Shown: positions 43,468-43,580 of the stretch, piece by piece
Position numbering within the stretch: position 1 is the first letter of the stretch
How the letters are laid out: every line of letters starts with the position of its first letter
Origin: an uncultured delta proteobacterium
GTDB taxonomy: Bacteria; Myxococcota; Myxococcia; Myxococcales; Myxococcaceae
Reading direction: 5' to 3'
NCBI GenBank assembly: GCA_963796055.1
Contig: CAWCKH010000005.1
Coordinates: 96,001 to 160,000 of the forward strand
Length of the DNA: 64,000 nt
Translations under genes and position numbers: made by a program
Notes under the pieces: generated by a model
The model's database searches: none
What the model was told of the DNA's origin: nothing
The model's input: the letters and a program-made list of their open reading frames with translations, nothing else

Positions 43468-43496
43468 CCGCCCCCGTGAGGAAGTTCGCTCCCCAG

Positions 43497-43580
43497 ATGC
43501 GTCGAATTACCGCGCGGCCCATGCACATGCGTGGCCCGGGCGGGCGTTCCGTCGCCGGGGAGTGTTGTCGGTGTTGTTGA
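43497..43580 (+). CDS. Putative Cys-rich attenuator leader peptide MRRITARPMHMRGPGGRSVAGECCRCC
   Basis: 27-codon ORF (in-frame GTG at 43476 is an alternative start) ending TGT TGT CGG TGT TGT TGA, directly upstream of a sulfur-amino-acid operon. GAGGAAG lies upstream of the ATG. Confidence 0.72.
   Translation: MRRITARPMHMRGPGGRSVAGECCRCC

Follow-up and report, generated by a model that had tools for sequence, protein, structure and literature searches.

The metY locus and its leader ORF

The window, a stretch of 64,000 nucleotides from a genome that belongs to genus g1 of the Myxococcaceae, carries a sulfur-amino-acid operon preceded by a short leader, and all the features described below lie on its + strand. 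The operon begins with metY, encoding an O-acetylhomoserine sulfhydrylase (43797..45089; TIGR01326, 653 bits against a cut-off of 495), and continues with a metX-like homoserine O-acyltransferase gene (45086..46243; below the curated cut-offs) and a gene for a bifunctional aspartate kinase / homoserine dehydrogenase, AK-HSDH (46243..48714; 686 bits, cut-off 726). The stop and start codons of these three genes overlap, and metX was found after metY in 13 of the 15 longer loci checked, one locus ending at a contig edge. On the upstream side lies a gene for an Xaa-Pro aminopeptidase (41930..43441), the stop codon of which overlaps the -35 box of the leader promoter; this gene adjoins the leader only in genera g1 and g44.

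The leader contains a near-leaderless ORF of 34 codons (43476..43580; MRKFAPQMRRITARPMHMRGPGGRSVAGECCRCC), which runs from GTG 43476 through ATG 43497 and ATG-CAC-ATG at 43521-43529 to TGT TGT CGG TGT TGT TGA at 43563-43580. The original prediction had described this ORF with its four TGT cysteine codons, the M-H-M motif, the promoter TTGACA-N18-TACCGT and the sulfur-amino-acid operon downstream, and all of these were confirmed in the sequence. It had read the ORF in two lengths, 34 codons from GTG 43476 and 27 codons from ATG 43497. Both can be read, and the conserved form is the longer one and not the 27-codon form, because ATG 43497 is substituted by ACA, ACG, CTG or ACC in several relatives. 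Related ORFs of this kind have 34-37 codons and start with ATG, GTG or TTG, and the indels within them are multiples of three, so that the frame is kept.

The predicted sigma70-type promoter (43438..43467) consists of TTGACA at 43438-43443, a spacer of 18 nt and TACCGT at 43462-43467. It is absent from the + strand list of a consensus promoter scanner because its -10 hexamer matches just three of the six positions. The TTGAC ... TAnnnT spacing is retained in the relatives, and the first T of TTGAC stands 37-41 nt from the leader start codon in 35 of the 36 non-identical leaders of the window's type (type I, see below). Given that GTG 43476 follows the -10 hexamer at a distance of 8 nt, transcription is predicted to begin at the start codon or directly ahead of it; we infer that the transcript starts with GTG 43476 or 1-3 nt ahead of it, and that the ORF is translated leaderless. 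A perfect 8-bp inverted repeat (43450-43457 / 43464-43471), partly kept in relatives, spans the promoter spacer and the -10 hexamer and may be an operator. A survey of six small-share soil, root and mine sequencing runs, made on contigs only, yielded from one RNA run a 162-nt contig which covers 43492-43650 and carries no start, strand or level information.

All four Cys codons of the window's leader are TGT, although TGC accounts for 9 of the 11 Cys codons in the four flanking genes and TGT makes up only 464 of the 3573 Cys codons (13%) in 747 long ORFs of the genome. The string Cys-Cys-x-Cys-Cys-stop has a single occurrence in the 5.53-Mb genome when both strands and any frame are considered. 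No NCBIfam match was obtained for the window's peptide and five related peptides (one reference, L014, being unverified), no Rfam family was assigned to the leader (best E 0.76), and a plasmid BLAST gave no match. Within the window's genome, no second copy of the leader was found, no other Met/Cys-type leader appeared among 10 promoter-proximal sORF candidates, and RF00162 was not found among the 150 of 391 candidates scored. A search of the same genome with RF01725 was silent, and its controls were likewise silent.

Leader types across the Myxococcaceae

A close metY is present in 82 of 208 family genomes, and the upstream regions were read in 72 of them, the ten omitted all being members of the genus g13. 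In 59 of the 72, a promoter-proximal ORF before metY was detected automatically, 22-37 codons long and at +37 to +41 from TTGAC. One further, longer variant (L131, genome G162) was identified by hand; it carries seven consecutive Cys codons ahead of its stop and lacks a start codon at the customary spacing from the promoter. No leader was found in nine genomes, namely seven of g12, one of g6 and one of g1, the last with 68% completeness and a different upstream neighbour. In this leaderless g1 genome (L017, G011) the different upstream gene is accompanied by an unrelated, structured-looking leader of 170 nt, for which there was no Rfam match.

The 59 leaders fall into two types. Type I (20 genomes of g1, g44 and g29) ends in a run of Cys codons, and type II (39 genomes of six genera plus g39) has a shorter ORF with no terminal Cys run, usually with one or two Cys directly ahead of the Met codons; three of these leaders have no Cys at all. 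The terminal Cys run is thus found in 20 of 59 leaders, in addition to L131, and 65 of its 79 codons are TGT. By contrast, 58 of the 59 leaders have Met-x-Met, among them all the 39 which lack the run. The original prediction had noticed M-H-M, the window's form of the Met-x-Met that is the family-wide invariant, and had treated it as secondary; the Cys-tract ORF for which it suggested a test in related leaders is conserved and TGT-biased within one clade and is not a family-wide feature. Over all leaders, Met and Cys account for 11.2% and 9.2% of the codons in comparison to 1.7% and 0.86% in the genome, which is an enrichment of about 6-fold and 10-fold, the Met share being slightly overcounted because the reading of five ORFs began at an in-frame start further upstream. 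TGT forms 100 of the 144 Cys codons in leaders as against 13% in the genome. A metagenome motif scan gave 26 matches, of which 23 lie 173-222 nt before metY, two are cut short (L141, L161) and one is spurious (L144); it shows linkage to metY and not independent conservation, because the pattern was built from the motif itself. The genera compared are also kin and not independent samples.

These data bear on two explanations which do not involve tRNA charging. The nascent or finished peptide itself could act, by a metabolite- or metal-dependent arrest or as a small Cys-rich protein in trans, and the invariance of RGPG and ECC in the type-I peptides would fit such a role. However, the codons for both motifs show no nucleotide change either, third positions included, as pairing demands, the length and ending of the peptide vary between the types while Met-x-Met and the pairings persist, and no family match was found, so that this explanation is considered very improbable. 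That the leader is an untranslated structured RNA, riboswitch-like or protein-binding, with the ORF as a by-product, is scarcely credible. The leader does fold better than its shuffles (z -3.5) and its nucleotide conservation is high, but a start codon at a fixed promoter distance, in-frame indels, the enrichment of Met and Cys codons and the lack of an Rfam match all speak against an untranslated RNA. The leader ORF is regarded as a real, conserved leader-peptide control element, and some form of ribosome-mediated control at the metY leader is very likely.

Two other features were seen around these leaders. In the type-II leaders of g30, g34, g39, g40 and g62, the first Met of Met-x-Met is preceded, by eye, by the rare Arg codon CGA, which is absent from this position in g13, g33 and the window. 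Palindromic boxes TCCG-N6-CGGA are repeated around the metY -35 box and 5' UTR in type-II loci (L169-L175, L179, L190-L199, L204), and they are also present in leaderless loci (L047, L050-L052, L055, L132-L138) and in L015/L016. These boxes are probably the operator of a methionine-regulon transcription factor, either layered on the leader or replacing it.

In three of the 72 family genomes, a SAM-I/IV riboswitch (RF01725) lies before the orthologous metY in the same place as the leader, which agrees with the earlier suggestion that the leader stands in for a SAM riboswitch. The three loci are L040:2146-2330 (a Hyalangium versicolor record), L013 (G019) and L166 (G157). In these loci an SD-holding hairpin directly precedes an ORF of 7-9 codons that starts with Met-Cys and lies 150-300 nt before metY; the Cys codons of these mini-ORFs are TGT, and there are three of them in L166. 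The riboswitch may gate translation of a Cys-sensing mini-ORF, and on sequence grounds such loci would again join a Met-side and a Cys-side signal.

Among more distant metY loci, a Met/Cys-cluster sORF was found in 6 of 62 as against 2 of 62 on the opposite strand, and five of the six share their ending and have U-tailed hairpins. These ORFs (L070, L078, L086, L099, L100; hosts among Actinomycetota, Thermodesulfobacteriota and deltaproteobacterial MAGs) end in Gly-Gly-x-x-Met before metY and are followed by a full-U-tract hairpin. In a neighbouring family, L226:5150-5440 (G300) has a leader of 45 codons with six internal Met, four Cys and a canonical intrinsic terminator before metY-metX. Full U-tracts are present in L226, L086, L099 and L100.

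RNA architecture, ribosome model and output

When folded with no ribosome, the leader shows a self-folded ORF, with the codons of Met16-His17-Met18 (43521-43529) at the top of a hairpin (1:2; 43510..43543), followed by a long hairpin (3:4; 43605..43666) which is formed by 43605-10:43661-66, 43615-21:43645-51 and 43627-33:43638-44. Six pairs of hairpin 1:2 are retained in 23 of 23 alignment rows, with three one-sided changes and no two-sided change. Segment 2 (43533..43550) is the ORF strand predicted to pair with 43605-43623 once the ribosome melts 1:2, and in 58 of the 59 leaders it starts 3-9 nt past the final Met codon.

The ribosome was modelled as a block on the RNA that extends 8-12 nt beyond the chosen A-site codon, and the nascent transcript was then folded. 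While the ribosome stands at about codons 10-16(17), the freed ORF strand pairs with 43580-43623, and 3:4 has a probability of 0.0-0.27. For window transcripts ending at 43660 or 43676 this probability lies between 0.0 and 0.05 for codons 15-16, and from codon 19 onwards it is 1.0, every Cys codon and the stop codon included. In silico, 22 of 24 g1-type leaders flip from 2:3 to 3:4 as the ribosome passes Met16-Met18, and in the group averages the transition falls on Met-x-Met in g1, in g44 (n=9, weaker) and in type II (n=24), where the measure was how far segment 3 pairs with the ORF while segment 4 has yet to be transcribed. The outcome changes with the footprint and the transcript length that are assumed: for Met18 the result is borderline, and when the transcript is extended to 43700 the flip at Met16 survives with the shortest footprint only. 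In type II, 3:4 wins at equilibrium whatever the ribosome position, so a kinetic argument alone remains there. A first model, in which codons 27-29 paired with the 3' arm of 3:4 as an antiterminator, was rejected as the pairing had a probability of 0.0 in 24 leaders.

Comparison between the types is consistent with the proposed pairing of segment 2. The segment and its partner vary in concert between types, GGCCCGGGC being found with GCCCGGG and GGTGGGC with GCCCACC, and the partner lies 26-32 nt behind the stop in all 11 leaders shown. The cognate duplexes have energies of -22.5 and -20.5 kcal/mol versus -18.0 and -16.1 kcal/mol for shuffled ones, although just 11 of 20 and 19 of 34 beat 95% of their own shuffles. 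RNAalifold gives no covariation within g1 (term +0.26) because the pairing arms are invariant there. Mutually exclusive 1:2, 2:3 and 3:4 pairings with the switch on the control codons, which mark the classical attenuators, are thus found in silico. As far as sequence and folding go, the promoter-proximal ORF, Met-x-Met, the Cys run of one clade and the exclusive pairings are all supported.

The hairpin 3:4 is most likely the OFF state. Its type-II form has a broken U-tract behind it and arms which nearly match a fully U-tailed terminator behind the Met/Cys leaders before metY in the deltaproteobacterial MAGs L086 and L100; together with the canonical terminator in L226, this is the ground on which 3:4 is taken as OFF. 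The L199 row of alignment A3, which was mis-cut, is left out of account. The output in type II is most likely intrinsic termination. In the window, a terminator scan found no U-tract behind 3:4 and no terminator-like site on the leader + strand, and Rho-dependent termination or occlusion of the metY RBS has been considered for this reason. As a first guess, Rho is favoured for type I, ahead of RBS occlusion. The genome has a Rho gene, and besides the canonical Rho a second homologue was observed at G000:C4:2732133-2733230 (474 bits, under the cut-off). A C-rich stretch directly behind the stop (43581..43604; 13 C and 3 G of 24) is a candidate Rho loading site, its rut role being suggested by composition; with the ribosome further upstream, it folds back onto codons 26-33. 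Further downstream, 43667-43782 holds 52 C and 31 G.

As to the RBS, a pyrimidine strand (43701..43708) is complementary to the metY Shine-Dalgarno (SD) region (43785-43792) in the folds; a similar CU-rich strand is present in g1 relatives and a different one in g44. In full-length equilibrium folds, the SD stays paired in every state. With the ribosome at the first Met, the SD opening energy is 7.96 versus 8.70 kcal/mol in g1, lower in 12 of 24 leaders and higher in 5, and 6.5 versus 8.5 kcal/mol in g44, lower in 7 of 9; these changes of 0.7 to 2 kcal/mol point the way an opening of the RBS would require. An RBS-opening switch driven from the second Met was rejected, as it produced no shift over the 59 leaders, and the first Met gave a weak shift.

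The original prediction had taken Cys-tRNA as the main signal. In a form of that explanation which follows the mycobacterial poly-Cys leaderless ORFs, stalling on the Cys codons would open the metY RBS by unpairing the pre-SD region, and the Met codons would be incidental. The TGT-rich run in all the 20 type-I leaders would fit a Cys sensor, as would the lack of cysE in g1 and g44 (see below). The RNAalifold consensus further pairs the Cys codons with a conserved octamer 9 nt before the SD (43768..43775), one of the eight pairs being retained in 19 of 23 rows and the other seven in 22-23, and it pairs the 5' end with the SD, an arrangement resembling that given for Ms5788A in the available part of its source. 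This consensus is ambiguous, as the octamer has an alternative local partner (43713-43725). Moreover, a ribosome on the Cys run hardly moves the SD opening energy (8.26 versus 8.70 kcal/mol in g1), the predicted switch point lies on the Met codons, and Met-x-Met persists in the leaders that have no Cys run and in the three that have no Cys. Cys-tRNA as the main signal is therefore unlikely.

The preferred explanation is a Met-tuned classical switch with an inducing terminal Cys sensor and a terminator-less output, to which we assign a probability of roughly two in three; every step of it is derived computationally. When Met is short, the ribosome would pause at Met16/Met18 and melt hairpin 1:2, and the freed ORF strand 43533-43575 would zip onto 43580-43623, blocking 3:4 and hiding the C-rich stretch, so that metY-metX-AK/HSDH would be expressed. 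When Met is plentiful, the ribosome would reach the stop, 3:4 would form and expression would be cut. In the weakest step of the scheme, a shortage of Cys would hold the ribosome at the leader end, where it may block Rho or a leader-closing helix and thus raise expression.

The terminal cysteine run and relation to known systems

The terminal Cys run (TGT TGT CGG TGT TGT; 43563..43577) is proposed as the second sensor. It lies 12-16 codons beyond the Met16-Met18 switch point and therefore cannot act via 2:3/3:4. An inducing effect has been proposed because the genus, in which cysE is lacking, can use homocysteine as a source of Cys: the gene was not found in the window's genome (98.5% complete), in any of 12 other g1 genomes or in any of 8 g44 genomes. 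A cysE-like match, below the curated cut-off, was found in all the 39 type-II genomes. The Cys run thus occurs mainly in two genera without cysE, g1 and g44, which are sisters and give non-independent evidence on this link; G041 and G162 have the run plus a cysE-like gene. The window's genome has CBS-like, CysM-like and CGS/CGL-family genes and MetH, and PAPS reductase was not found in it. MetY may feed Cys as well as Met in this organism, so that induction on Cys shortage would be useful.

The two inputs could also have opposite signs, a Met stall being on and a stall on the Cys run being off through covered segments 1-2 and delayed release, which would spare sulfide or homoserine. With the ribosome on Cys30-Cys34, the probability of 3:4 is 1.0 as at the stop, the C-rich stretch is most exposed then (0.70 unpaired at the first Cys), and g44 shows, by eye, complementarity between the SD-pairing strand and the strand that leads up to and into the Cys run. 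However, the Cys codons of type II and g44 lie inside the ON window before Met-x-Met, so that Cys shortage should induce, a genome without cysE benefits from MetY induction, and the poly-Cys leaders in the portions of the literature consulted all induce. The chance that the signs are opposed is accordingly judged to be small, slightly below that of Cys-tRNA as the main signal. The Cys run, conserved in its clade and TGT-biased, may thus be a second and probably inducing input.

The classical leader-peptide attenuators are trpL, hisL, thrL, leuL and pheL. Like them, the window has a short leader ORF with cognate codons in segment 1, exclusive 1:2/2:3/3:4 pairings and a biosynthetic operon downstream. 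The control codons are however Met (and Cys), the ORF is near-leaderless, a second codon run stands at its end, and in the window's clade no intrinsic terminator (hairpin plus U-tract) serves as 3:4. In tnaC-type Rho-dependent leader attenuators, an exposed C-rich rut lies behind the leader stop. The classical mechanism is summarised in bioRxiv 10.1101/834739, in the part of the text available, which also describes mycobacterial polycysteine leaderless sORFs such as Ms5788A, predicted earlier in PMC1262725. The accessible portions of these sources show a leaderless ORF of about 30 codons with a C-terminal Cys run, no intrinsic terminator and sulfur-amino-acid genes downstream, as in the window, where a start 8 nt behind the -10 hexamer (leaderless by prediction) and two Cys-Cys pairs near the stop were found. 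The likeness is one of architecture; unlike the mycobacterial leaders, that of the window has an upstream Met-x-Met which is invariant in the family, targets metY-metX-AK/HSDH, belongs to another phylum and keeps its SD closed in folds with the ribosome on the Cys run. The leader is thus not a full member of the classical or the mycobacterial poly-Cys class, because an intrinsic terminator is missing and the signal common to the family is not Cys.

Two further leaders are comparable. Streptomyces lividans metL, which lies before metNIQ and is annotated from RNA-seq, is leaderless (29 codons), has Met and Cys near its end and hairpins without a typical terminator before a methionine-related operon, and its termination mechanism is called unclear in the sections of PMC8079986 consulted; its target is however a transporter and not biosynthesis, and those sections give no 2:3/3:4 model. 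The uORFC-8-2 before cysS in Rhodobacterales has tandem Cys codons and predicted attenuation, and differs from the window's leader in having Cys only, mostly TGC, an intrinsic terminator and a tRNA-synthetase target (PMC8632094, available part). The SAM-I/IV riboswitch (RF01725) does the same physiological job and senses SAM by RNA binding, and it has no match at the window's leader. In the accessible text of PMC1262725, no conserved RNA element is reported before actinobacterial met operons. A survey of methionine regulation in about 200 proteobacterial genomes (PMC4239095) does not contain 'attenuat', 'leader peptide' or 'Myxo' in its available part, where betaproteobacterial metY is given no known regulator, and the parts of PMC2965389, PMC4833913 and PMC9373788 at hand add nothing further on such leaders. 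As the original prediction had surmised for myxobacteria, no Met/Cys leader attenuator before metY, nor any such description in these bacteria, was found in the literature searched, the coverage of which leaves out most subscription journals and supplements.

Control of methionine synthesis is exerted by repressors, SAM/SAH riboswitches and T-boxes. Attenuation is textbook knowledge for other amino acids and seems to be untested for methionine, so that a Met-codon attenuator would fill an empty cell among the methionine controls, old as the mechanism class itself is. Such an attenuator must tell elongator and initiator Met-tRNA apart, because a shortage of Met could equally block initiation at the leader. 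A wider proposal, which we put forward tentatively as plausible though doubtful, is a two-sensor ribosomal gate: a Met-x-Met switch across the Myxococcaceae, a separate Cys run added in the lineages losing cysE, a terminator-less output, and the Met and Cys logic rebuilt in relatives as a SAM-I/IV riboswitch gating a Cys-rich mini-ORF. If true, it would provide, as far as the literature was searched, the first methionine-codon attenuator to be worked out, together with a new tandem of riboswitch and uORF. The Myxococcaceae offer a natural series, comprising Met/Cys leaders followed by a terminator-like hairpin, leaders with Met and a terminal Cys run but no terminator, a SAM riboswitch with a Cys mini-ORF, and loci that have no leader, and this series lets the design rules be tested, many type-II genomes being complete single-contig assemblies.
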